A DNA stretch of 61,707 nucleotides, filler included. It is 3 parts of 3 records of this genome, joined end to end, with 100 filler letters (N's around TTAATTAATTAA, not from the genome) between each part and the next. Parts side by side here need not be neighbours in the genome. Positions count along the whole stretch, not along the records: positions 20,526 to 33,422 come from SRR31156797_4972; 2 more parts are not named here. One strand, 5' to 3'. Shown one piece after another: positions 20,426 through 33,522 of this stretch (position 1 is the stretch's first letter; every line of letters starts with the position of its first letter). Made by a program: the position numbers and the translations under genes. The notes beneath the pieces are model-generated. The model ran no database searches. It saw nothing but the letters and a program-made list of their open reading frames with translations, and was not told where the DNA came from.

Positions 20426-20525
20426 NNNNNNNNNNNNNNNNNNNNNNNNNNNNNNNNNNNNNNNNNNNNTTAATTAATTAANNNNNNNNNNNNNNNNNNN
20501 NNNNNNNNNNNNNNNNNNNNNNNNN
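20426..20525. other. Artificial contig-joining spacer
   Basis: 44 N + TTAATTAATTAA (stops in all six frames) + 44 N; gene style changes across it. Confidence 0.97.
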
Positions 20526-21728
20526 TGTTCGTATCTCATGGGACATATTTGCTAAGAAAGTTGATTTAGTCATATCTGCTTTTTCTGCTTGAATTTTTGA
20601 TTCAACTATCTCTGAGATATCAAGCCTAATAGCTAAAAACTCCTCTATCTCATTTTTTGCATTGGTAAGTGGAACAATCGTTGAAGCAACATAATAACTT
20701 GTACCATCTTTTGCCCTATTTTTAATCTGTCCTTTCCATGTCTTTTTTGATTTGATAGTACTCCACAAGTCTTTAAACACTTCATCTGGCATATCAGGAT
20801 GACGGATAAGATTATGATTTTTACCAATCAATTCTTCTTCTAAATACCCCGATATTTTTACAAATTCCTCATTGACATACGTAATCTTTCCATTGGCATC
20901 TGTTTTTGAAACAATCGCACTTGAATCTACTGCCCGTTTATACTCATTAAGCATTTTTGTTCTTGATGCAATCTCATTTTCAAGTTTCTCTTTTGTATTT
21001 TTATAAAGATGTTTTTGTCTATAAGCCACATAGGTATAGTGTATTCCTAAAATAGCAATTAAAATAATAAAAAGAGTTACAATATAAATAGTTTGGTTTG
21101 AACTTAATACTATCTCATCTTCAAATGGTATGGTAACCTCTAAAGCCCCTCTCACATCTCCTAGTTTCCAATCATTTTTAGGAGTATCTGCTCGAGTATT
21201 ATGACAATTCACACATGCTTGATCATAAAAAATATCAGAAACAGTCACTTTTAAAAGCTTTTGATTATTTTCTTCAGCTACCTTTATATAAGTATCATGA
21301 GGATTTTTTTCAATAAAATTTAAAGCTTCTTCTTGATCTTTATTTAAAACTCTATCAGCCCTATTTGGAAAAGGATAATGGCTATACATCTTGATCTTGA
21401 TCCCATTATCAGGAAGAATTTCACTTAAATTATGCAGAAGTGTTGCAGGAAGTGGGATAGTATCCTCTTTTTGACTATGATCATAGTTTATTTTGATCCC
21501 TGTTGCATGGTTTTTTACACCATTGATCACATTGCTAGTATAATAACTTCGAATCTTCTTGAGTTTATTCACAGAAGAGACTGCACTAGTTTTTAAACGA
21601 TCTAACTGATTCTCTTTTGAGATCTCTGGTATATAAAAAACAATCAATCCAACCACAATAATCGAAGTAACAATAATTGGTCCTATAAACTGATTTGTAA
21701 ATGGACTCACCAAATCTTTAAATTTCAC
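20526..21728 (-). CDS. Sensor histidine kinase (3'-truncated): TM, DUF3365/Tll0287-like c-type heme domain, TM, PAS, HisKA
   Basis: ACVNCH..WKLGDVRGAL, PAS NHNLIRHPD..WKGQIKNRAKDG, H-box FLANMSHEIRT at the contig end; GTG 21728 follows AGGAGG. Confidence 0.85.
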
Positions 21729-21737
21729 CAACTCCTC

Positions 21738-22781
21738 CTACTCTTGCGAAAATTCATCATATATTTTTTTGATCTCATCAATATTTTCTACAAATATATC
21801 AACTATTTTAGGATCAAAGTGTTTTTCTTTTTCCTCTTTTAAAAGCTCTAATGCATCATCAAAACTCCATGCCTTCTTATAAGGTCTATGGGAAGTTAAG
21901 GCATCAAAGACATCTACAATAGCAACAATCCTTCCAAAGATAGGGATATCTTCCCCTTTAAGCTTATTTGGATATCCACTCCCATCAAATCTCTCATGAT
22001 GAGAAATAGCAATAGTAGCTCCTGCTTGTAAAAACTTACTTGTTGCATCTTTTAAGATATCATATCCTATTGCCGCATGCTGCTTCATTATTTCAAACTC
22101 ATCTTGTTCTAATCTTGCTGGTTTTAAAAGAATTGCATCTTCTATTCCAACTTTTCCTAGATCATGAAAAGGGGAAGCATAAAATATCACCTCTTGATCC
22201 TCTTCACTCAAACCATACATTTTTGCTAATAAACGGGAATAATGTGCTACCCTTGCCACATGTGAAGCGGTTTCTGGATCTTTATACTCAGCTGTTTTTC
22301 CTAAGATTCTAAGAGCTTCATGTTCTCTATCTATTAATTCAATAGTTGCTAACTCTACCTCTTTTTCTAAAAGTTTTGCTTTATCTTGAAGTAAAAGTTG
22401 AGAGTGATAGTTATTTAAAAGAGTAGTTATTCTTGCTTTAAATAAAATAGAGTTTATAGGTTTTGCCAAAAAGTCGTTGACCCCTGCTTCAAAAGCATCT
22501 TTATGGATAGTATCATCACTTCCAGCTGCTGTTACCATAACGATTGGTACTAATTTATTACTATTTCTGTACTCTTTGATAAAATCTATTCCATTAAGAT
22601 TTGGCATCATATAATCAATAATAATAATATCAATTTTATTTTGCAGTACAAACATCAAAGCATCAAGTGGATCACTAAAGCTTTGAACACTAGCTCCCAT
22701 CTCTTGACAAATAGCTTCTACAAGCATAAGGTTATTTTCATTATCATCTATTGAAACTATTTTCACTTTAGAGAAGTCCAT
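21738..22781 (-). CDS. Response regulator with HD-GYP c-di-GMP phosphodiesterase domain (RpfG-like)
   Basis: Receiver DD..DYMMP..KP; HDLGK and HHERFDGSGYP; DVFDAL..RPYK. Confidence 0.92.
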   Translation of the reverse strand: MDFSKVKIVSIDDNENNLMLVEAICQEMGASVQSFSDPLDALMFVLQNKIDIIIIDYMMPNLNGIDFIKEYRNSNKLVPIVMVTAAGSDDTIHKDAFEAGVNDFLAKPINSILFKARITTLLNNYHSQLLLQDKAKLLEKEVELATIELIDREHEALRILGKTAEYKDPETASHVARVAHYSRLLAKMYGLSEEDQEVIFYASPFHDLGKVGIEDAILLKPARLEQDEFEIMKQHAAIGYDILKDATSKFLQAGATIAISHHERFDGSGYPNKLKGEDIPIFGRIVAIVDVFDALTSHRPYKKAWSFDDALELLKEEKEKHFDPKIVDIFVENIDEIKKIYDEFSQE

Positions 22782-22798
22782 GGGTGATCCCTTTTTAA

Positions 22799-22827
22799 TT
22801 GTAAATCTAATGTTAATATTGTATAAT
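22799..22827 (+). promoter_or_regulatory. Sigma70-type promoter for the ModA-like gene
   Basis: TTGTAA-17 nt-TATAAT; AAAGGAG RBS before ATG 22860. Confidence 0.55.
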
Positions 22828-22859
22828 CTTCAAACTAAATTGTATCTAAAGGAGCTGTT

Positions 22860-23657
22860 ATGAACTTTGTAAAAAAAATCTTCATCTTATCAACCTTATC
22901 TCTCTTTGCACTCAATAGTTTTGCCAATGAAAAAAAAGAGTTATTGTTTTACATTGGGATCACTATGATAAAACCTGTGAATGAACTCGCTAAAGAGTTT
23001 GAAAAAGAGCACAACTGTACCATAAAGATTTTACAAGGGGGAAGCCAAGATCTCTATGAAAGTATCGTTTCTAGTAAAACTGGTGATCTCTATCTTCCTG
23101 GTTCTGTAAGTTATAGAAATAAACATCTAGAAGATGGTATCTTACTTGATGGTACTTTTGTAGGATATAATAAAGTAGCTCTTGTAGTTAAAAAAGGAAA
23201 CCCTTTAGGTATCAAAGCTGATCTAAATGAACTTAGTAATCCAAAATATCGAGTAGTACTAGGGAATGAAGAGAGTGGAAGTATAGGGAAAAAGACAAAA
23301 AAAGTTTTAGATAACTTTGGAAACTATGAGGATGCAATTTTAAATACAGTCTATTTAGCACCTGATTCTAGAAATCTTACAAAAGCTATTTCAAGTGGTG
23401 AAGCTGATCTTGTATTAAACTGGTATGCTACCACTTTTTGGGATGATAATAAAAACTTTGTAGAACCACTTGTTATAGATGAAAAATATGCAAAGAAAGC
23501 AAAACTGGTATTTAATTTACTGCAAACTTCAAAAAACAAATCTTTGACTAAAAAATTTATGGATTATGCAGCTTCAACAAAAGGAAGAGAAGTTTTTTAT
23601 AAATATGGATTTTTAGATAAAAATGATTTAAAAAACTTCGATAAAGTAACATTTTAA
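22860..23657 (+). CDS. ModA-like periplasmic substrate-binding protein
   Basis: Signal peptide ending SFA; GGS, DLYLPG, LVVKKGNP, SGSIG, GEAD, FYKYGF motifs of the molybdate/tungstate SBP fold. Confidence 0.8.
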   Translation: MNFVKKIFILSTLSLFALNSFANEKKELLFYIGITMIKPVNELAKEFEKEHNCTIKILQGGSQDLYESIVSSKTGDLYLPGSVSYRNKHLEDGILLDGTFVGYNKVALVVKKGNPLGIKADLNELSNPKYRVVLGNEESGSIGKKTKKVLDNFGNYEDAILNTVYLAPDSRNLTKAISSGEADLVLNWYATTFWDDNKNFVEPLVIDEKYAKKAKLVFNLLQTSKNKSLTKKFMDYAASTKGREVFYKYGFLDKNDLKNFDKVTF

Positions 23658-26281
23658 TGAAACTCGTAAAAGATAGTGTTGTTCAAAACCTTGTAGCTCT
23701 TCTTGGGGTATTTATCATAGGATATGCTTCAATTATATCTATCCATTTTGTTTTTGCAAATATTATTAATGGTCTGGATATAAAAGTAAAAAATGAACAA
23801 GCAAGATATCAAATTGGAGAATATATTGTTAATGAGATAAATACTATAGAGAAACAATTTTATCAAATGACTATGGCTTTTCAAATAAGAGAGCTTAAAC
23901 CACTTCAAGAGAAAGTCACTGAAGAGATAAAAGATATAAAACATGCTATTAATATTTTGGAAGTAGGAGGAACTTTAGAAAAACATATTCAGTTAAATCT
24001 AGTTGGGGTAAGTAAAAGTATTGAGTATATAACATACCAACCAGATACAAAACTCAAATATACCTATGAAGCAATAGACCTTATTCCAAAACTTGATCTT
24101 TTAGGAAAAAAGATCTATGAGATGGATGATATCACTGATTTAAAACATGAAATACTCCAAGCAATTGATACTAAAGAAGCAAAGAAAAAGCACTTTAAGA
24201 TCAAACTCTTTTATAAACAGATCCCAGCTATTTTTATTAGAATGAAAGAGAATGCTAGTAGATTATTGTATGAGAGTAAACAAGAGTTACAAACTCTTCA
24301 AAAAAATATTGAAGATCAAAAAGCATATTATAGATCATTAGAGATCACTGTTACTATCTTTGTTGTATTATTTATCTTTTTACTAGGATATATTGTTATA
24401 AGACAAATCTTACAAAAAAGTAAAGAGCTTGCCAAACTTACAAAAGAAGCAAAAGCTGCAGCAAAAGAAGCTGAAGTTGCTAATGAAACAAAATCTAGAT
24501 TCCTAGCAAATATGTCCCATGAGATCAGAACTCCACTTAATGCTATCATAGGATTTTCAGAGATCCTTACAAAAGTTGATATGAAAGATGAAGATAAGGA
24601 AAAAGCTTCCATTATTGTAAAAAGTGCAAAAGCTTTATTAAATATTATCAATGATATTTTAGATATCTCAAAAGTTGAAAGTGGAAAATTTGAGATTACT
24701 CCTGAAAAAGTTGATCTTAAAAAATCACTCTCCCATATAGTAGAACTTTTTGCAGTTAATGCAAAACAAAAAGATATACGGCTTATCTATACCTATGAAG
24801 AGGAACTCCCTACTTATGTAGATATTGATGAAACAAGAGTCAAACAAGTAATATCAAATATTTTAAGTAATGCTATCAAATTTACAAAAGAGAAAGAGAG
24901 TGTGACGTTCCATATAAAAGTACTTGAAAAACAAGACAAAAATGTAAAAGTAAGATTCTCAATCAAAGATAAAGGGATAGGGATATCTCCTGAGAACCAA
25001 AGAAAAATATTTGAACCTTTTTCCCAAGCTGATACTAGTGTCTCAAAACAGTTTGGAGGAACTGGACTTGGACTTGCAATTAGTATGAAACTTATCAGCC
25101 TTATGGGTTCTAGAATCGAGCTTATTAGTAAAGAGGGAGAGGGAAGTACTTTTTATTTTGATCTTACCCTTCCATACTATAAAGAGGAGGAAGAGAAGAA
25201 AAAACCTCATGCATTTTATGTATGTTCAATTATTGATGATGAGGAATCATTACACAAAGGACTAATCCCTATTTTACATGAGTTTGGTGCAGTATATCAA
25301 GCAAATAATGCTATTGAGAGTATTGATTTTATTGATCTTATTTTTTGTTTTGGGGATAAAGAGTATTTTCCAAAACTATTACAAGTCAAAGAGAGGTTTC
25401 ATGCTCCGATTGTTTATGTGGGAAAAGAGGAAAAGATAGAGGAGTTTAGTGACTTTAAAAAAGAGATAAGTTTTTATCTAGATCTTCCTCTACTTGCTTC
25501 TAAGATTTATAATATTATAGCTGAAGCATGTGAGATAGAAAAAATTGATACTTATATGGATGATGAGACTGGTTTCCATGGGAATATCCTTGTAGCAGAA
25601 GACAATAGTAATAATCAGCTTCTTATACAGCTTCTTTTAGAAGGATATGGATTAGATGTGACTATTGTAGAAAATGGTCAACTAGCTGTTGATATGTATA
25701 AAGAAAAATCTTTTGATCTTGTGTTTTTAGATATTAATATGCCTGTTATGGATGGTATCACTGCTTTAAAAGAGATAATAAAACTTGAAACACAAAGTGG
25801 AACAAAAGTTCCAAAAGTTGCACTAACAGCCAATAGTTTAAAAGGGGATAAAGAGAGATTTTTAAATGAAGGGATGGATAACTATCTAGCAAAACCTATA
25901 GATAATACAAAACTTGGAGAGATCCTTGCTTTATACCTAAGAGATAAAAATAAAAAACCCCACACTATAAGACCTACGATCATTGATATAGAACAGATCG
26001 CAAAACAATTTGGAGTAAGTACTCCAACAGCAAAAGCGATGATGGAAAAACTAAAAAAAGATCTTATAAAAAATATTGATGCTTTAGAAGAAGCACTTGG
26101 TAGCAATAATATGGAAGAGATTAAAAAGCTATCAAAAAATCTTCAAACTATCTGTATCAATATCTCTTTTGATGAGGGAAGTAATATCTTACAAGGTCTA
26201 GAATCAAGTGAAGATATTGAAGCTGCACAAGAGAAGTTTAATCTTTTAAAAGAATACCTAGGAGATATCACAAAACTCTAA
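23657..26281 (+). CDS. Hybrid sensor histidine kinase: 2 TM, periplasmic domain, HisKA, HATPase, receiver, degenerate HPt-like tail
   Basis: FLANMSHEIRTPLN, NAIKF, DKGIG, GGTGLGL, AEDN..DINMP..AKP. Confidence 0.92.
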   Translation: MKLVKDSVVQNLVALLGVFIIGYASIISIHFVFANIINGLDIKVKNEQARYQIGEYIVNEINTIEKQFYQMTMAFQIRELKPLQEKVTEEIKDIKHAINILEVGGTLEKHIQLNLVGVSKSIEYITYQPDTKLKYTYEAIDLIPKLDLLGKKIYEMDDITDLKHEILQAIDTKEAKKKHFKIKLFYKQIPAIFIRMKENASRLLYESKQELQTLQKNIEDQKAYYRSLEITVTIFVVLFIFLLGYIVIRQILQKSKELAKLTKEAKAAAKEAEVANETKSRFLANMSHEIRTPLNAIIGFSEILTKVDMKDEDKEKASIIVKSAKALLNIINDILDISKVESGKFEITPEKVDLKKSLSHIVELFAVNAKQKDIRLIYTYEEELPTYVDIDETRVKQVISNILSNAIKFTKEKESVTFHIKVLEKQDKNVKVRFSIKDKGIGISPENQRKIFEPFSQADTSVSKQFGGTGLGLAISMKLISLMGSRIELISKEGEGSTFYFDLTLPYYKEEEEKKKPHAFYVCSIIDDEESLHKGLIPILHEFGAVYQANNAIESIDFIDLIFCFGDKEYFPKLLQVKERFHAPIVYVGKEEKIEEFSDFKKEISFYLDLPLLASKIYNIIAEACEIEKIDTYMDDETGFHGNILVAEDNSNNQLLIQLLLEGYGLDVTIVENGQLAVDMYKEKSFDLVFLDINMPVMDGITALKEIIKLETQSGTKVPKVALTANSLKGDKERFLNEGMDNYLAKPIDNTKLGEILALYLRDKNKKPHTIRPTIIDIEQIAKQFGVSTPTAKAMMEKLKKDLIKNIDALEEALGSNNMEEIKKLSKNLQTICINISFDEGSNILQGLESSEDIEAAQEKFNLLKEYLGDITKL

Positions 26282-27253
26282 AGATGCAATATCTGGTTTT
26301 TCTAAACCATTATTGTTATCTATATAGAGGTTTTTAAGCTTTGTAAGATTTGTAAAGCTTTTTGGAAGAGATGAGATATCATTCTCTTCCACATCAAGCT
26401 CTAAAAGATTTTCAAGGTTACCTATACACTCAGGAAGCTCTTTAAGCTCATTGGCTGAGACACTTAAATGATTGAGCCTTTTCAATTCACAAATTGAGTC
26501 TGGAAGATATTCTAGATTATTATTATCTAAAGTAAGAATTTGAAGATCTTCTAATTGACTAATATCAAAATTTAAACTACTAAGATTATTGTCATTAAGA
26601 TTTAATCGCATCAACATATCATGAGACTCTAAAGATGGAAGATTCTCTATCTCATTTCCCTCTAATAAAAGTGTTTCAAGCTCCTCTATATCACCAATAG
26701 TTGGAGGGAGCGTGTTAAACTCATTATAAGAGATATCAAGATAATAAAGTGATTCCATACTATCAAAAACATCTGGAAGCTCTTTAAGATAATTTGTATC
26801 TAAAGAGAGATATAAAAGCTTTGAAAGGTTTTTAAGCTTATCTGATAAGTTTTCAAGTGAATTTGCTGCTATTGTAAATCGTGTGAGTTTGGTAAGATTA
26901 TAAAACTCATCTGGTAACTCTTTGATTCTATTTCCATTAAGATTTATTACTAATAGTGATTCTAAATCCCCAATGCTACGAGGAAGCTCTTCAAGTAAAT
27001 TATTTTCACACTGTAGATTTTTTAGCTTTTTCAATCTACCGATACTCTTAGGGAGTTTTTTTAAACGGTTTCCTGAAAGCTTTAAGATCTGAAGATTTTC
27101 TAAAGCCCCTATTGATTCAGGAAGTTCACGTATCTTTTTTTTTGAAAGATCTAAAATAGATAAAGCTTTTAATTGATCAGGTTCCAAAGGGGTTGAAAGA
27201 CTAAGATTGCTTGTTTTTGCCCATCTTATAAAATCTTGAATATCGTATTGCAT
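26258..27253 (-). CDS. Leucine-rich repeat protein
   Basis: About 13 tandem 22-23-aa repeats LxxLxLxxNxLxxLPxxI; no signal peptide. Confidence 0.92.
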   Translation of the reverse strand: MQYDIQDFIRWAKTSNLSLSTPLEPDQLKALSILDLSKKKIRELPESIGALENLQILKLSGNRLKKLPKSIGRLKKLKNLQCENNLLEELPRSIGDLESLLVINLNGNRIKELPDEFYNLTKLTRFTIAANSLENLSDKLKNLSKLLYLSLDTNYLKELPDVFDSMESLYYLDISYNEFNTLPPTIGDIEELETLLLEGNEIENLPSLESHDMLMRLNLNDNNLSSLNFDISQLEDLQILTLDNNNLEYLPDSICELKRLNHLSVSANELKELPECIGNLENLLELDVEENDISSLPKSFTNLTKLKNLYIDNNNGLEKPDIASLEFCDIS

Positions 27254-27256
27254 CCC

Positions 27257-27490
27257 TTACCTCTCATTCATTTGATCAATTAAAAAATCTATCTCTTCAT
27301 AATCGATTTCACCAAATTCGATCATTTTAAAGAGTGCCATTAAAGGTCTTCTACAACATGTTTTATTACATTCTGTGACCAGTTTTTTAGCTTTTTTATA
27401 AGGAAGATCAGTCTCTTTAAAAATCTCTACAGCTTGGGCAACATTCTTATTACCACATTCACAAATAATTTTTAAAGTCTTATCTTCCAT
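27257..27490 (-). CDS. BFD-like [2Fe-2S]-binding protein
   Basis: IICECG...CNKTCC (C-x-C-x28-C-x3-CC) in 77 aa. Confidence 0.7.
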   Translation of the reverse strand: MEDKTLKIICECGNKNVAQAVEIFKETDLPYKKAKKLVTECNKTCCRRPLMALFKMIEFGEIDYEEIDFLIDQMNER

Positions 27491-27518
27491 TAGTATATCC
27501 TATTTGGTATTATAAAAT

Positions 27519-27725
27519 CTATTTTAAGAAATCGTGTTTTGCTTTAAACTCTTCAACTGGTTTCATAGCCTCTTCGATTTTTCCAGATAATTCAGCTAAT
27601 CTTGTATAATCAGTCCAAATCGTATCTTCAACAATATCATGCATCTCGCCAGCAAGTTCAGTCACTTTTCTTTTGTATCCTGCATACTCTTTTTTGATCG
27701 CTTTTTCCTCTTCTGTTAATGCCAT
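27519..27725 (-). CDS. CCE_0567/Rop-like nif-associated small metalloprotein
   Basis: 68-aa helical hairpin with AGEMHDIVED..W resembling the family motif; in an operon with nifV. Confidence 0.6.
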   Translation of the reverse strand: MALTEEEKAIKKEYAGYKRKVTELAGEMHDIVEDTIWTDYTRLAELSGKIEEAMKPVEEFKAKHDFLK

Positions 27726-27750
27726 TGTATTCCCCTTTTGTTGTTTTAAT

Positions 27751-27799
27751 AAAGATAGCTTAAATATACCATCATAAATAATATACTTAAGCTATCTTT
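27751..27799. other. Intra-operon inverted repeat (stem-loop)
   Basis: Perfect 13-bp arms AAAGATAGCTTAA / TTAAGCTATCTTT. Confidence 0.6.
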
Positions 27800-27805
27800 T
27801 GAATC

Positions 27806-28621
27806 TTAAAATCCGTATACAGACTCTAGATTGATATCTGGTTTTTTATTTAAGTAAATTAGTCCAAAATTATCTGTTATATCAAACTTATAAGACTCAT
27901 ACAATTCAACGATCTCTTTTACATCTTTTGGGATAAAAGATACTACAGTTTTTAATCCCCTATGGTATAAAACACCACGTAGAAGTTTTTCACTATCTGT
28001 ATATGCTTCATCTTCCATTACCCATGGACTTACTTTTATGATATTGTTATTGACTGCATAGGAGTGTTGAAACCCAAATTGAGTTGAAAGGAAAAGCGAT
28101 GATCCCTTTGATATAGTGTTCGTAATATAATGAAACCTATCTTCATTAAACTCTTTTGAATCAATATTTTTAATAGTCCCTAAATAGTTTGGATTAGAAA
28201 TACTTTTTGCGGTAGTATTTGAAAAGTTAAAAGCAACTGCTCCACCTTTATACACAGCCTTTTTAAAATTTGCATACTTTTTAAAACCAAACTGCTTTAG
28301 TATCTCTTGCTCTTTTAGACTCGCTAAGAACATAATAGTTTTTTTCTGCTCATCAATATTATTTAAAAGCAATTTAAAAAGTCTTACAATCACCTCATCT
28401 TCTATACTCTTTACATAATAAAGGTTATTAATAAGAACTGACTCATTAAATCTATATGCAGTTACCACTGCTAAGAGCTCTCCATCCTCATAAGCTCCAA
28501 AAGCCATACTTTGATCTTCATCAACAGTTTTTGTCACTAAATTTTGATCAATTGTTATCTTCTGGGCTAATGCACTTAAGTCATCATAAAATGACTTTTT
28601 TCTTATCCATCCTATGAACAT
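27806..28621 (-). CDS. GNAT-fold (YitH-like) hypothetical protein
   Basis: AFGAYEDGELLAVVTAY, LKQFGF, LYESYKF suggest tandem degenerate GNAT domains; overlaps the nifV stop by 10 nt. Confidence 0.5.
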   Translation of the reverse strand: MFIGWIRKKSFYDDLSALAQKITIDQNLVTKTVDEDQSMAFGAYEDGELLAVVTAYRFNESVLINNLYYVKSIEDEVIVRLFKLLLNNIDEQKKTIMFLASLKEQEILKQFGFKKYANFKKAVYKGGAVAFNFSNTTAKSISNPNYLGTIKNIDSKEFNEDRFHYITNTISKGSSLFLSTQFGFQHSYAVNNNIIKVSPWVMEDEAYTDSEKLLRGVLYHRGLKTVVSFIPKDVKEIVELYESYKFDITDNFGLIYLNKKPDINLESVYGF

Positions 28622-29718
28622 AAATAAAGATCCTTTAACTCTTCTGGATTAAGCACTTTTTTTCTACTTGTCACAATCTCTCTTACCTTTGGAAGGAGCG
28701 CTTGAACTTTTTCTTTCGATGGAGTGATCCCAATCGCTTGAAGATGGTATAAAAGAGTTGCACTTCCTGAGTGTTTTCCTATTGGAAAATATCGATTAAG
28801 CCCTACCTCTTTTGGATCAAATGCTTCATAAGCATTTTTACTTTTGATCATCCCATTTACATGGATCCCTGATTCATGAGAAAAGATATGCTTTCCAACA
28901 ATTGGAGTATTATTATCTATTTTTTTATTAGCTGCTCGACTCACTGTTCGTACTAGTTTTTTAAGCTTTTTAGAATCAATTTTTCTTGACTCTCCAAACT
29001 GATGAGTCAAACTCATTAAAACCTGTTCAAATGAAGCATTACCAGCACGCTCTCCTAAGCCTATTACAGTTGTGTTTGCTGATTTTGCACCTGCTTCGAT
29101 ACCTGAAATTGCATTGGCTGTTGCCATACCAAAATCATTGTGAGTATGCATCTCTATATCTAAAAGATCAAGTGAACTTAAATAAGAGATATTTTCATAG
29201 GTTCTTTGTGGAGTCAATACTCCTACTGTATCACAATATCGAAATCTATCAGCTCCTAAAGCTTTTCCAAAACTCATGATCTCACTTAAGAGTGCATTAT
29301 CGGCTCGACTGGCATCCTCTCCACCGATACATACAAATAAGCCCTCTTGTTTAGCACTTATTACCACATCTTCAAGATTTTTAAGTAGCTTATCAATCTT
29401 CCCTTTAAATTTTACATCGATTAAAATTTGAGAAACAGGAATAGAAAGGTCTACTGCTTTTACTCCACATTTTAGTGAGCTCTCTAAATCTTCCATAGTT
29501 GCTCTATTCCAACTCATTATTTGGATTGGAAGATCAAGGGAAAGGATCTCTTTAAGCTCCTCTTGCTCTTTTGAACCCATAGCAGGGATCCCTACTTCAA
29601 GCTCATCAGCTCCAGATTCGTATAATAGTTGTGCAATTAAAAGCTTTTCTTCAAGTGTAAAAGAGACATACGGTGCTTGTTCACCATCTCGTAAAGTTGT
29701 ATCGTTTATTAATGCCAT
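28612..29718 (-). CDS. nifV: Homocitrate synthase
   Basis: DTTLRDGEQ, ELEVGIPAMG, EDASRA, RFRYCDTVG, EMHTHNDFGMATAN, HESGIH, GKHSG; lacks the LeuA regulatory domain. Confidence 0.88.
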   Translation of the reverse strand: MALINDTTLRDGEQAPYVSFTLEEKLLIAQLLYESGADELEVGIPAMGSKEQEELKEILSLDLPIQIMSWNRATMEDLESSLKCGVKAVDLSIPVSQILIDVKFKGKIDKLLKNLEDVVISAKQEGLFVCIGGEDASRADNALLSEIMSFGKALGADRFRYCDTVGVLTPQRTYENISYLSSLDLLDIEMHTHNDFGMATANAISGIEAGAKSANTTVIGLGERAGNASFEQVLMSLTHQFGESRKIDSKKLKKLVRTVSRAANKKIDNNTPIVGKHIFSHESGIHVNGMIKSKNAYEAFDPKEVGLNRYFPIGKHSGSATLLYHLQAIGITPSKEKVQALLPKVREIVTSRKKVLNPEELKDLYLCS

Positions 29719-29741
29719 ATCGTTACCTTTAATAAATTGAA

Positions 29742-29757
29742 TGCAAAAACTATTCCT
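29742..29757 (-). promoter_or_regulatory. Sigma54 (-24/-12) promoter of the nifV operon
   Basis: Minus strand AGGAATAGTTTTTGCA = GG-N10-GC, GGAA..TTGC form as in Campylobacterota; AAAGG RBS follows. Confidence 0.6.
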
Positions 29758-29800
29758 TAAAAAAATATCTTTTTAAGTGGGGAATTGGCACAATCTAATT

Positions 29801-30493
29801 ATGAAACTACAGAACTTAATTCACGGTAAACTAATCAAACGATATAAAAGATTTTTGGCAGATATAATTTTAGATAGTCGCGAAGAGATCACTGCTCATG
29901 TACCAAATAGTGGTGCTATGACTTCTACCATAGCAGATAATTGTGATGTATGGGTAAGCTATCATGATAATCCAAAAAGAAAACTCAAATATACCTTGGA
30001 GCTCACAAAACTAGATGATCAATATATTTGTACCAATACAAACCACGCAAATAAAGTAGCTATAGAAGCTATTGAAAATGGTACTATTAAAGAGCTTCAA
30101 AGCTATGATACACTCAAACCTGAGCAAAAATATGGAAAAAATAGTCGAATAGATATCCTCTTAGAAAAAGATGATCAAAAGTGTTATGTGGAGATAAAAA
30201 GTGTTACTCTTAAACTTGGTGACCATCTTGCTTTTCCTGATGCTGTCACTTCAAGAGGAGAAAAACATTTAAGAGAATTAGAGCAAATGGTACAAGATGG
30301 TCATAGAGCTGTGATGTTGTATGTGATCCAAAGGACAGATACACTTCCTTTTAGACTTGCAAATGAGATCGATAAAAAATATTATGAAACCTTTTTAGAG
30401 GTTACTAAAAAAGGGGTTGAAGTGTTAGTCTATCAATCTTCTATAAGTCTTGATGAGATCTCTATAAAAAAACCTATCCCTTTTACAATATAA
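29801..30493 (+). CDS. sfsA: SfsA DNA/RNA nuclease (sugar fermentation stimulation protein)
   Basis: KRYKRFLAD, AHVPNSGAM, SRIDILL, VEIKSVTL, FPDAVTSRGEKHLREL. Confidence 0.93.
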   Translation: MKLQNLIHGKLIKRYKRFLADIILDSREEITAHVPNSGAMTSTIADNCDVWVSYHDNPKRKLKYTLELTKLDDQYICTNTNHANKVAIEAIENGTIKELQSYDTLKPEQKYGKNSRIDILLEKDDQKCYVEIKSVTLKLGDHLAFPDAVTSRGEKHLRELEQMVQDGHRAVMLYVIQRTDTLPFRLANEIDKKYYETFLEVTKKGVEVLVYQSSISLDEISIKKPIPFTI

Positions 30494-30498
30494 GTTTT

Positions 30499-31305
30499 TC
30501 ACACAGGAGTATCAATATAAGCTAATCTATCATTGGTACTTTTTAAAGTCAAATTATATTTTTGTACCACTTTATCTATATCTATAAATGAATCATAATC
30601 AATACTCTTTTTTGAGTACATAAATACCATATCATCTTTATTTCTCATCAATTCAATATGTGGATATTTTGTATCAAGAATATGTTTTAACTCACCCATA
30701 AGCTCAGGTAAAGTTGGTTGATCTTTTGATATCTGTACATAATACTCTTCCACCTGATAATGGATATGATTGATACTAAGTATACTAATAAGATCCATTA
30801 AATTACTATGATGAAATACATCATCTTCAGCATTTAAAATAAATCGAAAGTTTTTTTCATCAAAACTAAAATCATCAAATGATCTTGCTATAATATGAAG
30901 TTTAGTACCTAACTCTCCATCACAATAATTACGTTCACAACGGGAGTCTTTTTTAAATGCTTTTGCTATCTCATTAAGTTTGTAAGGTTTAAAGATTCGA
31001 TAATGATGACGATCTTTTTTACACTCTTCACAACTTTTTTTATCACTACATTGTAGATTGTTATTAATAAATACGATCTTTTGAGAAGAGTTTATTAACT
31101 CTATTTTCTCTTTTAATTGCTTCCCAAACTTTTCATTGAGATCAAGAAAAACAATATCAAAATCATTAGAATATTCTTTATATTGAGTTATAAACTCTTG
31201 TTGGTCATTAAAAGATTCCACAAAAATACTGAGTGGTAATTTTTTTAATAAGTCACAAAAGTGATCTAAAGATTTCGTATGGTGATCAAATATTAGAACT
31301 TTCAT
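30499..31305 (-). CDS. Atypical receiver-domain protein with Cys-rich insertion
   Basis: MKVLIFD..FDIVFLDL..KIVFI..FKP receiver scaffold; CSDKKSCEEC and CERNYC. Confidence 0.55.
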   Translation of the reverse strand: MKVLIFDHHTKSLDHFCDLLKKLPLSIFVESFNDQQEFITQYKEYSNDFDIVFLDLNEKFGKQLKEKIELINSSQKIVFINNNLQCSDKKSCEECKKDRHHYRIFKPYKLNEIAKAFKKDSRCERNYCDGELGTKLHIIARSFDDFSFDEKNFRFILNAEDDVFHHSNLMDLISILSINHIHYQVEEYYVQISKDQPTLPELMGELKHILDTKYPHIELMRNKDDMVFMYSKKSIDYDSFIDIDKVVQKYNLTLKSTNDRLAYIDTPV

Positions 31306-31340
31306 ACTATGAATTTTAATATAAAAAAATGTGATATTTG

Positions 31341-31349
31341 TGTTATAAT
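31341..31349 (+). promoter_or_regulatory. Extended -10 promoter upstream of the MCP
   Basis: TGTTATAAT (TGn-TATAAT); AAGGAG RBS before GTG 31428. Confidence 0.45.
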
Positions 31350-31427
31350 TTTCAATATTACAAAATGCTATGGATTTGCTATATTATTTTAGTAAAATGA
31401 AGTAATTATTATGTAAAGGAGATAGTA

Positions 31428-33422
31428 GTGAAAAACCTATCTATAAAAATGAAACTATTGATAGCTATTGCATTTATTGTATTAGTTATGTCTGCAATAT
31501 TAGTAAGCCTTAGTATCTATGATATCAAACAAACTTCCCAAAATGATATCCAGATATTTAAAGAAAAAGCTTTTAGTGCAAAAAAAGATGAGCTAAAATC
31601 TAATGTTGACATCGTATTAAAAACTATTGAATCTTTTTATACACGGACACTTAAAGAGAAAGTAAAAGTAGAGGTTCAAGAGAAACTAACCACTCAAGCG
31701 ACTATGTTGGAAAATATATTAACTTCATATTATGAGAATAATAAAAACAATCCAAATGTAAAACAGCAACTTATTGAGATCGTTAAAAATAGTAAATATG
31801 GAAAGAGTGGATATTTTTGGATCAATGATCAAGATGCTATGATGGTTATGCACCCTATCAAACCTAGTCTAGATGGAAAACATTTAGCTGATCTTAAAGA
31901 TCCTAACGGGAAAAAGTTTTTTACTGAGATGGTTGAGCTCTCTAAAAAAAGTTCACAAGGTTTTGTGGACTATCAATGGCCAAAGCCAGGCTTTGAAAAA
32001 CCTCAAGACAAGGTTTCATATATCTTCACTTTTAAACCTTATAATTGGATCATAGGAACAGGCGAATATATTGATAATGTAACAGCTAATATGCAAAGAG
32101 ATGCTTTAAAAACAGTAGCACAGATGAAATATGGAAAAGAGAATGCAAAAAACTATTTTTGGATCAATGATAAAACGCCAACTATGATCATGCACCCAAT
32201 AAAACCAAGTCTTAATGGGACAAATATTGCAGGGGTAAAAGATCCTAATGGAAAAGCACTTTTTATCGAGATGGTAAAAGTGATCAACGACAAAGGAGCT
32301 GGATATGTGGATTACCAATGGGCAAAACCTGGATTTAATACTCCTCAAAACAAAATCTCATATGTGGCCTATTTTAAAGAATGGAATTGGATCGTAGGAA
32401 CTGGTGTATATGTAGATGATATTGAAGCTGAAATCGCTAAAATGGAGCAAGAAGCCACTGCAACAGTTACTAAAATTATTTTTACCTTTACAATAGTAAC
32501 TCTTGTATTACTAGGAATTGTTTTAGTTCTTTTATATATTGCTATTATGAAAAGTGTTATCACCCCACTTAACTCTTTAAAAGTAGGTTTTAATAAACTG
32601 CTTACAACCAATGATATTACTACAAGACTAGAGATCACGGAGATGGATGAGATAGGTGAGGCGTCTGAGCTATTTAATAGATATATGGACTCTATTCAAG
32701 AGGGATTAAAACAAGATCAAGTTGTTATTGATGAGATCAAAGAGATCGTTGATCGTGTACGAAGTGGATTCTTTGTCTACAAAGTAAAAAACACTGCAAA
32801 TAATCAAAATATCAATGATCTTAAAAATGTATTAAATGATATGATACAAACCTTTAATATGCAACTCTCAACGATCAATGAAACCTTGATGCAGTTTGGT
32901 AGAGCAAACTTCTCACATAAGCTTGTTTTAGAGAATGTTGGAGGGGAACTTGGAACAGTTATCACTCAAACAAAAGCTATTGGAAATAATATCTCTGAAA
33001 TCTTTGCTATGATCCAAACAAGTGGAGATGAACTCGCAAATAATATTATCTCTTTAAGTAGTTCATCAAATGACCTCTCAACTGCTGCAAATGAACAAGC
33101 AGCCTCTTTAGAAGAAACTGCAGCTGCTTTAGAAGAGATCACAAGTACAATAAGATCTAATAGTGAAAATATTACTAAAATGTCATCAATGGCAAATGAT
33201 CTTACCTCTTCAGCTACTACAGGACAAAAACTAGCCTCTCAAACAGCTGATTCAATGACACAGATCAATGAACAAGTTGCTGCTATTAATGAAGCTATCA
33301 GTGTTATTGATCAGATCGCTTTCCAAACAAATATCTTAAGTCTCAATGCAGCAGTTGAAGCTGCAACTGCTGGAGAGGCTGGAAAAGGATTTGCAGTAGT
33401 TGCACAAGAGGTAAGAAACCTA
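31428..33422 (+). CDS. Methyl-accepting chemotaxis protein with two Cache_2-type domains (3'-truncated)
   Basis: Two copies of [69 protein letters not shown]. Confidence 0.93.
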
Positions 33423-33522
33423 NNNNNNNNNNNNNNNNNNNNNNNNNNNNNNNNNNNNNNNNNNNNTTAATTAATTAANNNNNNNNNNNNNNNNNNNNNN
33501 NNNNNNNNNNNNNNNNNNNNNN
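33423..33522. other. Artificial contig-joining spacer
   Basis: 44 N + TTAATTAATTAA + 44 N, same design as 20426-20525. Confidence 0.97.

Follow-up and report, generated by a model that had tools for sequence, protein, structure and literature searches.

A secreted solute-binding protein (SBP) of the ModA fold and the hybrid sensor histidine kinase encoded directly downstream of it form a conserved pair. Their adjacency far exceeds chance because it is retained in 47 of 48 related loci. In the reading that we favor, and consider reasonably probable, they belong to a binding-protein-dependent two-component sensor made up of an SBP predicted to bind an anion, the kinase, and a response regulator with receiver and HD-GYP domains (REC+HD-GYP), and not to a nif regulatory system.

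The window, meaning the whole stretch of 61,707 nucleotides that was analyzed, consists of three contigs joined through N spacers. The real contig that carries the pair spans 20526-33422 (12.9 kb). Its features and limits are as follows:

20426..20525, no strand: artificial contig-joining spacer, N44-TTAATTAATTAA-N44, bounding the real contig on the left
20526..21731, minus strand: 5′ part of a second sensor kinase (Tll0287-like and PAS domains, Pfam), cut at the contig end
21738..22781, minus strand: REC+HD-GYP response regulator of the c-di-GMP phosphodiesterase type (REC at residues 8-115, HD_5 at 163-326)
22799..22827, plus strand: sigma-70-like promoter match, TTGTAA-17-TATAAT (consensus scan, 10 of 12 positions)
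22860..23657, plus strand: secreted SBP, 265 aa (PF13531 SBP_bac_11, 1e-44; a divergent subfamily with the ModA fold)
23657..26281, plus strand: hybrid sensor histidine kinase, 874 aa (Pfam HisKA 279-343, HATPase_c 391-505, REC 644-756)
23762..24343, plus strand: periplasmic sensor domain of the kinase, residues ~36-229 (AF2 pLDDT 90.5), a four-helix bundle with an inserted beta-hairpin (105-127)
26024..26278, plus strand: C-terminal Hpt-like helical region of the kinase, without the phospho-accepting histidine
26258-27253, convergent with the kinase: LRR gene, between the pair and nifV
28612-29718: nifV
33423..33522, no strand: second artificial contig-joining spacer, N44-TTAATTAATTAA-N44, bounding the real contig on the right

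Two features of this layout agree with the original prediction. The SBP stop overlaps the kinase start in TAATG at 23655-23659 (TAA 23655-23657, ATG 23657-23659), and the pair faces away from the REC+HD-GYP gene, which is divergent and 78 bp off. The SBP start lies 32 nt downstream of the promoter match, which comes from a scan that is weak in AT-rich DNA (42 sites found versus 27.9 expected). The second sensor kinase runs in the same direction as the HD-GYP regulator, and its translation reaches the N spacer after FLANMSHEIRT. Its orthologs in three related loci are hybrid kinases: 898-980 aa in L002 and L003, 977 aa or more in L001.

The survey of SBP-subfamily neighborhoods that had been proposed as a check found kinases and not permeases. 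In the 47 loci the gene directly downstream, on the same strand, encodes a kinase that shares the periplasmic domain; 45 of these were identified by phmmer, and two (L022 and L029) are open-ended ORFs that bear the same motifs. The 48th locus (L045) is cut at a contig end and is uninformative. An ABC ATPase motif occurs within ~6 kb at a single locus, L043, in a system complete with an SBP, ATPase, and permease of its own. These counts support the core idea of the original prediction, an orphan ModA-fold protein serving as the putative co-sensor of a hybrid kinase. The 48 loci are labeled Campylobacterota (33), Bacillota (7), Desulfobacterota (3), and Gammaproteobacteria (5). Where the SBP–kinase junction was measured (n = 45), 18 genes overlap, 24 are separated by gaps of 0-20 nt, and 3 by larger ones. 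The downstream genes are hybrid kinases in 27/27 cases and histidine kinases in 17/17, and the sensor domain is common to the hybrid and non-hybrid classes (alignment A4). Searching from the kinase side in 301 Campylobacterota genomes placed the SBP directly upstream in all five strong matches; no SBP lies within 1.5 kb of two distant homologs of the sensor domain (L061 and L062). In the SBP tree, the Arcobacteraceae proteins form two lineages matching kinase class. Kinase-class labels change 4-5 times on this tree, compared with ~16 times after shuffling, and none of 500 shuffles gave a number as low.

The SBP has a signal peptide at about residues 1-22 (…NSFA|NEKK), and lipobox cysteines are present in its Firmicute and some other homologs. 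Its AF2 model (pLDDT 93.3) is ModA-like. The best Foldseek match is 4kd5 (E 1e-20; TM 0.73/0.83), followed by Lmo1041, E. coli ModA, PEB3, and AcfC, and matches to ModA proteins of the same fold range from E 1e-17 to 1e-21. The sequence passes the ModA equivalog model TIGR01256 marginally (66.2 bits, cut-off 62.5), whereas four canonical ModAs of related genomes reach 170-221 bits. In the SBP tree, the canonical ModAs sit beyond a long branch (99% support). The subfamily carries the motifs FYIGITM, QGGSQDLY, GDLYLPGS, SGSxG, DSRN, and NWxAT, the first of which aligns with AAASL, AAAST, or VAANV of the related-genome ModAs (alignment A5), confirming that the usual AAASL segment has been replaced. 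Further changes turn SSG into GGSQ, VPAG into SGSIG, and IVY into NWY/H/R/K, with AAASL itself becoming GITM, and the SBP differs from ModA in having no ModB/ModC linkage. The SBP is probably a signaling paralog, distinct from transport ModA.

The pocket was compared through the ModA alignment and an alignment to molybdate-bound ModA 8zj6, using the anion-binding positions of E. coli ModA (S12, S39, A125, V152, and Y170). The SBP positions that align with them are T35, S62, the SGS-I-G143 loop (I142/G143), S170 (D-S-R), and Y/H/R/K189. These would offer hydroxyl or backbone donors and are plausible as such, although the surrounding motifs differ throughout. In the alignment the subfamily pocket residues depart systematically from ModA. 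Nine invariant polar or aromatic residues are absent in ModA (Q59, D76, Y78, N104, S139, S141, N187, W188, and W194), and the pocket motifs are near-invariant over four phyla and both kinase classes. A ModA-type anion pocket is a plausible prediction from the alignment, a tetrahedral oxyanion is our leading guess for the ligand, and molybdate or tungstate is one possible candidate among several. PEB3 of Campylobacter jejuni and AcfC of Vibrio cholerae, from related bacteria, are likewise periplasmic, have the ModA fold, and lack a transporter; in sequence they are about as far from the SBP as ModA is. They differ in that their bound ligands are organic (phospholactate/3-PG and D-aspartate, respectively) and they do not share the subfamily motifs; to our knowledge neither has a kinase partner.

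The kinase retains H288, N405, the G-boxes, D649, D692, and K746, all invariant across 27 homologs. As predicted, it has a helical periplasmic domain of about 200 aa, with ~195 aa between two transmembrane helices (~11-35 and ~230-252; AF2 mean pLDDT 90.5). The hairpin within it bears a VLExGG…LNL motif, and IDLxPKL and FIRMKENxSRLLYE are kept elsewhere in the domain (A4, 42 sequences), together with a strongly conserved charged patch of E138, K145, K187, R195, E198, and R202. The domain has no Pfam match even at E ≤ 10 and no Foldseek match at E ≤ 0.001, and its family comprises 588 clusters at E ≤ 1e-3. VIA-align ranks the TorS sensor first (3i9w_A; Z 14.3; 121 residues superposed at an rmsd of 2.2 Å), and LytS-N also matches (Z 11.9). 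The top value is just above the helical-bundle background, since designed bundles reach Z 13.3. The NCBIfam TorS models match the cytoplasmic core of the kinase alone (residues ~250-516), far below their cut-offs. In the Hpt-like region, alignment A2 has LSKNLQTICINISF in the window kinase versus AHYLKNSCLNLSL in relatives, and Pfam Hpt does not match the window kinase while it does match 14 of 27 homologs.

The likely output of the module, as predicted from gene neighborhoods, is the REC+HD-GYP regulator, in which the HDLGK and GSGYP motifs are present. The suggestion that the pair signals to c-di-GMP gains support because such a gene is a conserved neighbor, adjoining 17/48 loci and lying in a single RR-SBP-kinase operon in 7 of them. 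Of the 20 hybrid-kinase loci whose upstream flank is 1.2 kb or longer, 14 have it. No adjacent HD-GYP gene is found at 31/48 loci, including 17 of 18 with a non-hybrid kinase, and at Arcobacter-type loci the HD-GYP regulator has a co-operonic kinase of its own. Of the 14 hybrid-kinase loci with an adjacent HD-GYP gene, 13 retain the Hpt histidine, which the window kinase has lost. In Xanthomonas, RpfC/RpfG pairs a hybrid kinase with receiver and Hpt domains with a c-di-GMP-degrading REC+HD-GYP regulator, RpfC sensing DSF through its membrane domain without an SBP. The window genes resemble this system in the HisKA, HATPase, and REC domains of the kinase and in a REC+HD-GYP partner with both motifs; they differ in that RpfC has an Hpt, whereas the window kinase has no Hpt histidine and is paired with an SBP.

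The closest precedents for the SBP–kinase pair are HptA/HptS and TorT/TorS. In TorT/TorS (TMAO; E. coli, Vibrio) an orphan, transporter-less binding protein is likewise encoded next to a hybrid kinase with an all-helical-bundle sensor. The TorS sensor, however, is a double bundle of ~270 aa, as opposed to a single bundle with a beta-hairpin here; the two sensor-domain sequences have no detectable similarity, and the output is the DNA-binding TorR and not an HD-GYP neighbor. TorT also belongs to Peripla_BP_1 and not to SBP_bac_11, according to a table in PMC8050422. As described in the same paper, the Staphylococcus aureus system HptA/HptS/HptR has an SBP_bac_11 protein, HptA, that signals glucose-6-phosphate (G6P) to the adjacent histidine kinase HptS. 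The sensors of HptS and LuxQ are both described there as dCache-like (PMC8050422), unlike the all-helical four-helix bundle with one hairpin found here. HptS is also not a hybrid kinase, the output of its system is uhpT transcription, and HptA is not among the sequence or fold matches listed for the SBP. XylFII/LytS and LuxP/LuxQ offer a further likeness, a transporter-less SBP that docks on a periplasmic sensor, as we suppose for the present pair, and LytS-N is itself a four-helix bundle; XylFII and LuxP differ in belonging to Peripla_BP_4, and their partner sensor domains have no sequence relationship to this one. The module had been called undescribed. The co-sensor idea behind that claim is supported, but SBP_bac_11-to-kinase signaling has already been published for HptA/HptS (PMC8050422).

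What the SBP binds, and to what end, could be read differently. The proximity of nifV had suggested a molybdate- or tungstate-specific receptor that tunes nitrogenase or FeMo-cofactor supply, and the ModA fold, the marginal pass on the ModA model, the broadly kept anion positions, and nifV 2.3 kb downstream all fit this. So do L043, where the module is beside FdhD and a Mo/W-type ABC transporter, and genome G001, which has nifDK and a NifV 19 kb from the module. The pair does not directly abut nifV, though, being separated from nifV by the convergent LRR gene and a 271-aa ORF; nifV is indeed in the window, as the only nif gene there. The nif link fails because a NifV homolog is found within 6 kb at 0/48 loci, because the LRR-ORF-nifV block (26441-29607) is missing from L001, which is 97% identical in nucleotide sequence and has sfsA after the kinase, and because nifD, whose co-occurrence was to be checked, is in 2 of 5 module-bearing genomes and was not found in the other 3. 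In G001 it is a canonical modE-modA-mop-modB-modC operon, and not the SBP–kinase module, that adjoins nifDK. Cytoplasmic Mo sensing is already served by ModE/Mop regulators in the genomes checked, and the output domain is of the c-di-GMP phosphodiesterase type and not a transcription factor. In our reading the module neither regulates nif genes nor has a genuine link with nitrogen fixation, and we regard this molybdate-for-nitrogenase account as improbable. An organic anion (a phosphorylated metabolite, carboxylate, or sulfonate) is a ligand to which we give a small but real chance; the module would in that case operate in the manner of HptA/HptS or of PEB3-type binders. HptA provides a signaling precedent within SBP_bac_11 (PMC8050422). 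PEB3 (3e-10) and AcfC (2e-5) are sequence relatives in a PDB search as well as structural matches, with L-phospholactate and D-aspartate bound, and the extra invariant polar and aromatic residues would suit such a ligand. Against it, the best matches in both sequence and fold are ModA-type proteins, HptA does not appear among the matches listed, and the near-invariant pocket motifs fit a chemically invariant ion, without proving one.

The division of labor between the two proteins could also be otherwise. The SBP might mainly deliver ligand to an ABC or other importer encoded elsewhere, and lie beside the kinase through co-regulation or because it signals secondarily, in the manner of maltose-binding protein or ChvE. 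SBPs with both roles are well documented (PMC8050422), and the absence of ModB/ModC, correctly foreseen for the window (no ABC ATPase or permease by Pfam on 46 ORFs and a motif scan), applies to a real contig of just 12.9 kb, which covers little DNA. This account is nevertheless highly improbable to us, given that no ABC ATPase motif lies within ~6 kb at 47/48 loci, that in most loci translation of the SBP and the kinase is coupled, that SBP lineages track kinase classes, and that the mod genes have their own ModA in G001-G004. Three of these genomes (G001-G003) have a separate ModA-Mop-ModB-ModC cluster, with an upstream ModE confirmed in G001 alone; G004 has ModA beside ModB in one place and, in another, a permease and an ATPase with a ModA-like SBP of weaker score (76 bits). 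It is very unlikely, too, that the periplasmic domain senses the signal itself with the SBP as an accessory (buffer, chaperone, or inhibitor). Many four-helix-bundle sensors do bind ligands directly, McpS, McpN, and PcaY among the structural matches of this domain, and the conserved charged patch and the SBP-less L061 and L062 point the same way. Yet coupling to the SBP is near-universal whether the search starts from the SBP or, among strong matches, from the kinase; the cleft is conserved; and TorS, the closest structural match, and LytS-N are both SBP-dependent.

In the binding-protein-dependent sensor that we favor, the SBP is exported to the periplasm, as its signal peptide shows, and its ModA-type cleft would capture a small anion. 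Loaded or unloaded, it may then dock on the bundle-and-hairpin domain and set H288 autophosphorylation, by analogy with TorT/TorS and XylFII/LytS. From the kinase receiver (D692) the phosphoryl group would pass to the REC+HD-GYP regulator, altering c-di-GMP hydrolysis, as conserved operon membership suggests. The module thus probably reports a small anion to a c-di-GMP lifestyle switch.

A bolder version, which we put forward only tentatively, is that the SBP subfamily and its Pfam-less partner domain are a pair co-inherited across at least four phyla and constitute the first extracytoplasmic tetrahedral-oxyanion receptor to feed c-di-GMP directly. Molybdate or tungstate would be candidates, as would a sulfur oxyanion, thiosulfate for example. 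If this is true, oxyanion availability would govern how sulfidic and marine microaerophiles and anaerobes decide on motility and biofilm formation, and the oxyanion signal would be integrated with the haem-based redox kinases (Tll0287-like, protoglobin) of the same loci.

The substrate-binding protein (SBP) gene and the hybrid sensor kinase gene that follows it lie on a real contig of 12.9 kb (20526-33422) in the AT-rich window (38% G+C). Spacers of the form N44-TTAATTAATTAA-N44 occupy 20426-20525 and 33423-33522. The window is three contigs pasted together, so gene neighbourhoods that span these positions are not real. The features around the pair are as follows.

20526-21731, minus strand: kinase with Tll0287-like (haem-type sensor) and PAS domains, in an operon with the HD-GYP regulator, ending at the contig end
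21738-22781, minus strand: receiver plus HD-GYP protein, divergent from the SBP gene, HDLGK and GSGYP motifs intact
22860-23657, plus strand: SBP, 265 aa, Sec signal peptide (...LNSFA/NEKK)
23657-26281, plus strand: hybrid kinase, 874 aa, with Pfam HisKA (residues 279-343), HATPase_c (391-505) and receiver (644-756) domains
26024-26278, within the kinase gene: Hpt-like C-terminal helix (residues ~790-874), phospho-histidine lost in the window and in L001, a surveyed relative's locus
26258-27253, convergent to the pair: LRR gene, between the pair and nifV
27806-28621: 271-aa ORF without family, between the LRR gene and nifV
28612-29718: nifV (TIGR02660, 479 bits vs cut-off 463)

The pair is built as originally predicted. 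The SBP stop codon (TAA, 23655-23657) shares its last A with the kinase ATG, giving TAATG, and the pair faces away from the divergent HD-GYP regulator 78 bp upstream. It does not abut nifV, as had been claimed, since the LRR gene and the 271-aa ORF intervene. The proposed absence of ModB and ModC from the contig agrees with an ABC-ATPase motif scan, which found none in the window, but the real contig for which this speaks spans just 12.9 kb. Two candidates were rejected as spacer artefacts. One was pyrG as a neighbour of the module, and the same limit applies to yidC. The other was a "truncated Tll0287 kinase", whose translation enters the spacer after FLANMSHEIRT; this kinase is cut by the contig end. 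Its L001 orthologue has at least 977 aa, and those in loci L002 and L003 are hybrid kinases of 898-980 aa with Hpt. The same real contig is rich in signalling genes further along (30499-33422), with a 268-aa protein that has a weak receiver-like N-terminus (30499-31305, minus strand) and a dCache_2 chemoreceptor interrupted by the end of the contig (31428-33422, plus strand).

The original prediction treated the pair as a receptor-kinase module, and comparative genomics backs this reading. One genome per species was scanned with the SBP subfamily motifs FY[IV]GITM[VI] and QGGS[QK][DE]LY[DEN], which gave 48 loci. Going by record titles, Campylobacterota (mostly Arcobacteraceae and Sulfurospirillum) account for 33 of them, Bacillota for 7, Desulfobacterota for 3 and Gammaproteobacteria for 5. 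A kinase match was a same-strand ORF directly downstream covering at least 70% of the first 260 residues of the kinase, and 45 of the 48 loci have one. In L022 and L029 the same kinase lies directly downstream as an open-ended ORF leaving the contig. In L045 the contig is cut within the SBP gene and carries no information on the kinase. The kinase is thus present in 47/48 loci, the remaining one being uninformative, while an ABC-ATPase motif occurs in 1/48. As a control, the same motif flagged mod-type operon ATPases in four of seven paralogue regions (L050, L051, L053 and L054). Among the 45 junctions, 18 overlap, 24 have a gap of 0-20 nt and 3 a larger one. Downstream kinases are either hybrid (HisKA, HATPase and REC in 27/27, Hpt in 14/27) or plain (~680 aa, HATPase in 17/17). 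The SBP-kinase adjacency is real and conserved well beyond chance. A search for fused SBP-kinase proteins found none among 11 longer matches, which are all tandem SBP proteins at 24-31% identity; this is weak evidence.

The sole locus with an ABC ATPase, L043, holds an FdhD-SBP-ATPase-permease cluster with its own SBP_bac_11 protein, and an opposite-strand gene separates this cluster from the SBP-kinase module. This Mo/W-type transporter with FdhD beside the module (L043, 288-10449) is the sole contextual hint of molybdate or tungstate. Other neighbours are mixed: efflux pumps, RNase R, ilvC, a Na+/H+ antiporter and thiamine genes.

Some of the loci labelled Gammaproteobacteria are MAG bins and may be mis-binned. 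L004, L006 and L010, bins labelled Thiomargarita and Dichelobacter nodosus, contain modules that share 63-68% identity with the Arcobacter-type SBP and group inside Arcobacteraceae on the SBP tree; they are likely mis-binned contigs. In ten Arcobacteraceae/Campylobacterota loci (L027, L028, L030, L034-L037, L039, L040 and L042) a plain-kinase module directly follows an RNase R-like (RNB) gene, assigned by ORF size and position and confirmed by Pfam in L028 and L036 only. No response regulator adjoins the module in these ten. An ORF of ~340 aa lies 3' of the plain kinase in most of the ten as well as in L033 and L041; it is ilvC in the two checked, L028 and L034. The kinase of L037 (6702-8725, Halarcobacter ebronensis) is broken into two ORFs, of 320 and 223 aa, which may reflect a pseudogene or a sequencing error.

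Arcobacteraceae form two distinct lineages on the SBP tree, and these track kinase architecture rather than species. The kinase-class label changes 4-5 times over the tree, compared with ~16 times in shuffles, and 0/500 shuffles were as low. L011, L025 and L043 are exceptions to the match between SBP lineage and kinase class. Because related sequences cluster anyway, this pattern shows co-inheritance of the pair, not physical contact.

The SBP itself matches SBP_bac_11 (PF13531, Pfam) at 1e-44 and passes the NCBI ModA equivalog TIGR01256 just barely, at 66.2 bits against a cut-off of 62.5. Of 1494 candidate relatives, 462 reach E<=1e-3, and the best 120 of these have identities of 58-98%. In several sources they go by the name "molybdate ABC transporter substrate-binding protein". 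Our analysis indicates that the proteins so named in Arcobacteraceae, Sulfurospirillum and several anaerobes are mis-annotated signalling components.

The genomes that carry the module also encode separate ModA-type proteins. Each of five (G001-G005) has 4-6 SBP_bac_11 genes. The three Arcobacteraceae genomes (G001-G003) have a separate modA-mop-modB, with the modC ATPase confirmed in G001 and G003 only and ModE directly upstream of modA confirmed in G001 only. In G004 (Anaerovoracaceae) ModA adjoins ModB at one site, and at a second site a permease and an ATPase accompany a weaker ModA-like SBP (76 bits on TIGR01256). In G005 (Geopsychrobacteraceae; region L054) a weak SBP relative adjoins an ORF with an ABC ATPase motif. 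Counting G001-G003 and the first G004 site, and leaving G005 out, the four canonical ModAs score 170-221 bits on TIGR01256, and their ModBs pass TIGR02141. In the tree, 45 kinase-linked SBPs are split from three canonical ModAs by a long branch (SH-aLRT 99).

The fold is of the ModA type. The SBP model (pLDDT 93.3) best matches 4kd5 (E 1e-20, TM 0.73/0.83), then Lmo1041 and E. coli ModA, with PEB3 bound to phospholactate and AcfC bound to D-aspartate close behind. A PDB sequence search gave the same ranking (ModA-like 9e-15, PEB3 3e-10, AcfC 2e-5). For the pocket, we aligned the SBP to true ModAs and to the molybdate-bound ModA 8zj6. We take the anion contacts of E. coli ModA to be S12, S39, A125, V152 and Y170. 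S12 aligns with SBP T35 and S39 with S62, A125 falls in the S139-G-S141-I-G143 loop, V152 aligns with S170 of a D-S-R motif (D-V-R in ModA), and the counterpart of Y170 is position 189, occupied by Y, H, R or K. These residues could donate hydrogen bonds to an anion, and the alignment keeps them across all phyla and both kinase classes. The motifs around the pocket are systematically unlike those of ModA, with additional invariant residues Q59, D76, Y78, N104, N187, W188 and W194. We read the site as a putative anion pocket, most simply for a tetrahedral oxyanion. That the ligand is molybdate or tungstate seems rather unlikely.

The kinase has its sensor domain between two transmembrane helices (residues ~36-229), and this domain is common to both kinase classes. 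Its AF2 model, built with 42 homologues (mean pLDDT 90.5), shows four long helices plus a beta-hairpin (residues 105-127). Conservation is complete or nearly so at G104, G105, L113, N114, E138, I140, P144, K145, K187, P190, F193, R195, E198, N199, R202 and Y205, and the conserved residues make up the motifs VLExGG, LNL, IDLxPKL and FIRMKENxSRLLYE. Pfam searches with three of the periplasmic domains returned only noise at E<=10, and Foldseek found no PDB match at E<=0.001. An exhaustive structural comparison placed the TorS sensor (3i9w_A) first, with Z 14.3 and an rmsd of 2.2 Å over 121 residues, followed by designed bundles (Z 13.3 and 12.3), McpS (12.0), LytS-N of the XylFII complex (11.9) and QseE (11.8). 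These scores lie near the background for helical bundles, which argues for a four-helix-bundle sensor that is TorS-like in shape, not for homology. The ESM Atlas gave distant four-helix-bundle leads, CHASE3, PilJ and TarH (score 0.92-0.95, 141-164 shared features).

When the sensor region was used in a word-based search, it returned only 16 proteins, each of them a hybrid kinase. A profile run against 1.84 billion representatives found 588 clusters at E<=1e-3 (504 at <=1e-10), with the domain N-terminal in every match. In a set of 54 long representatives, HATPase_c occurs in 48, a receiver in 31, Hpt in 13, GGDEF+EAL in 2 and HD-GYP in 1. Starting from the kinase, the domain was found in 7 of 301 Campylobacterota genomes. 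In all five strong matches (E<=5e-71) the SBP gene immediately precedes the kinase gene; near the two weak matches (E 9e-18 and 2e-12) no SBP lies within 1.5 kb.

The suggested c-di-GMP output gained support from the survey. A receiver+HD-GYP gene adjoins 17/48 loci, and this adjacency is the strongest argument for a link from the module to c-di-GMP hydrolysis. Of 20 hybrid-kinase loci whose upstream DNA reaches 1.2 kb or more, 14 have such a neighbour, as against 1 of 18 plain-kinase loci. In seven loci (L016, L017, L019, L020, L047, L031 and L029) regulator, SBP and kinase follow one another on one strand. Six of the seven have an overlap of SBP stop and kinase start, and also one between the regulator and SBP ORFs; in L031 the SBP-kinase gap is 8 nt. 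The regulator comes after the kinase in L043 and is divergent in seven Arcobacter-type loci, the window included. Two findings qualify this predicted feed into c-di-GMP hydrolysis.

First, where the regulator is divergent, it shares an operon with a kinase of its own, Tll0287-like with PAS in the window, L002 and L003; other hybrid kinases take this place in L015 and L048. The Tll0287-like kinase probably feeds another signal, of redox type, into the same HD-GYP regulator. A Sulfurospirillum operon (L011, 3321-11050) encodes REC+HD-GYP, a single receiver, a PAS kinase, the SBP, the sensor kinase and a protoglobin kinase, an arrangement that suggests several kinases converging on a single c-di-GMP enzyme. 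From the co-operonic kinases and this protoglobin kinase, the regulator probably integrates several kinases. Second, the Hpt-like C-terminal helix of the window's kinase is without its histidine (LSKNLQTICINISF vs AHYLKNSCLNLSL). The histidine is kept in 13 of 14 hybrid-kinase loci with an adjacent regulator, the exception being L001, of the window's own lineage.

The nif link fared differently and is refuted as far as genomics can refute it. In none of the 48 loci is there a NifV homologue closer than 6 kb to the module, and the window has no nif gene besides nifV. L001, at 97% nucleotide identity, matches window positions 20526-26440 and then jumps to 29608-30743. It lacks the LRR-ORF-nifV block (26441-29607), and sfsA comes after its kinase; this reflects an indel between close strains or else a difference in assembly. 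The proposed co-occurrence with nifHDK did not hold either: nifD passes its cut-off in two of the five module genomes (G001 and G005), and NifV passes in the same two. Together, the survey, L001 and the nifD count indicate that the nifV adjacency is a strain-level accident of gene order, and the proposed nitrogenase connection should be dropped. In the Arcobacteraceae region L050 (G001:C1:1726000-1738000) a canonical modE-modA-mop-modB-modC directly follows nifD and nifK, and this is the real Mo-nif linkage of the group.

The review PMC8050422 puts the number of characterised SBP-dependent sensor kinases at only about a dozen, among the established ones TorT/TorS, LuxP/LuxQ, XylFII/LytS, ChvE/VirA, AioX/AioS and HptA/HptS. 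HptA is described there as an SBP_bac_11 protein, so signalling from this family to a kinase has precedent. The module differs from HptA/HptS, as outlined in that source, in that its sensor is a four-helix bundle, not dCache, and its output differs too. SBP_bac_11 members bind mainly metal oxoanions, as stated in a second review, PMC10443332. SulRS of Sulfurimonas (PMC12936845) is EnvZ-type and SBP-independent, unlike the module. TorT/TorS differs in SBP family, and the sensor domains are without sequence similarity. Full-text literature searches returned no description of an SBP_bac_11/hybrid kinase/HD-GYP module. The predicted kinase-to-HD-GYP logic of the module resembles that of RpfC/RpfG.

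The module is probably a further SBP-dependent sensor kinase system with an unannotated sensor-domain family. It adds a large family, uncharacterised so far, that includes a new SBP subfamily, and a sensor domain without a Pfam model. Many members have a predicted enzymatic c-di-GMP output instead of a transcription factor. The identity of the ligand would tell which environmental anion guides the choice of these bacteria between motile and sessile life.
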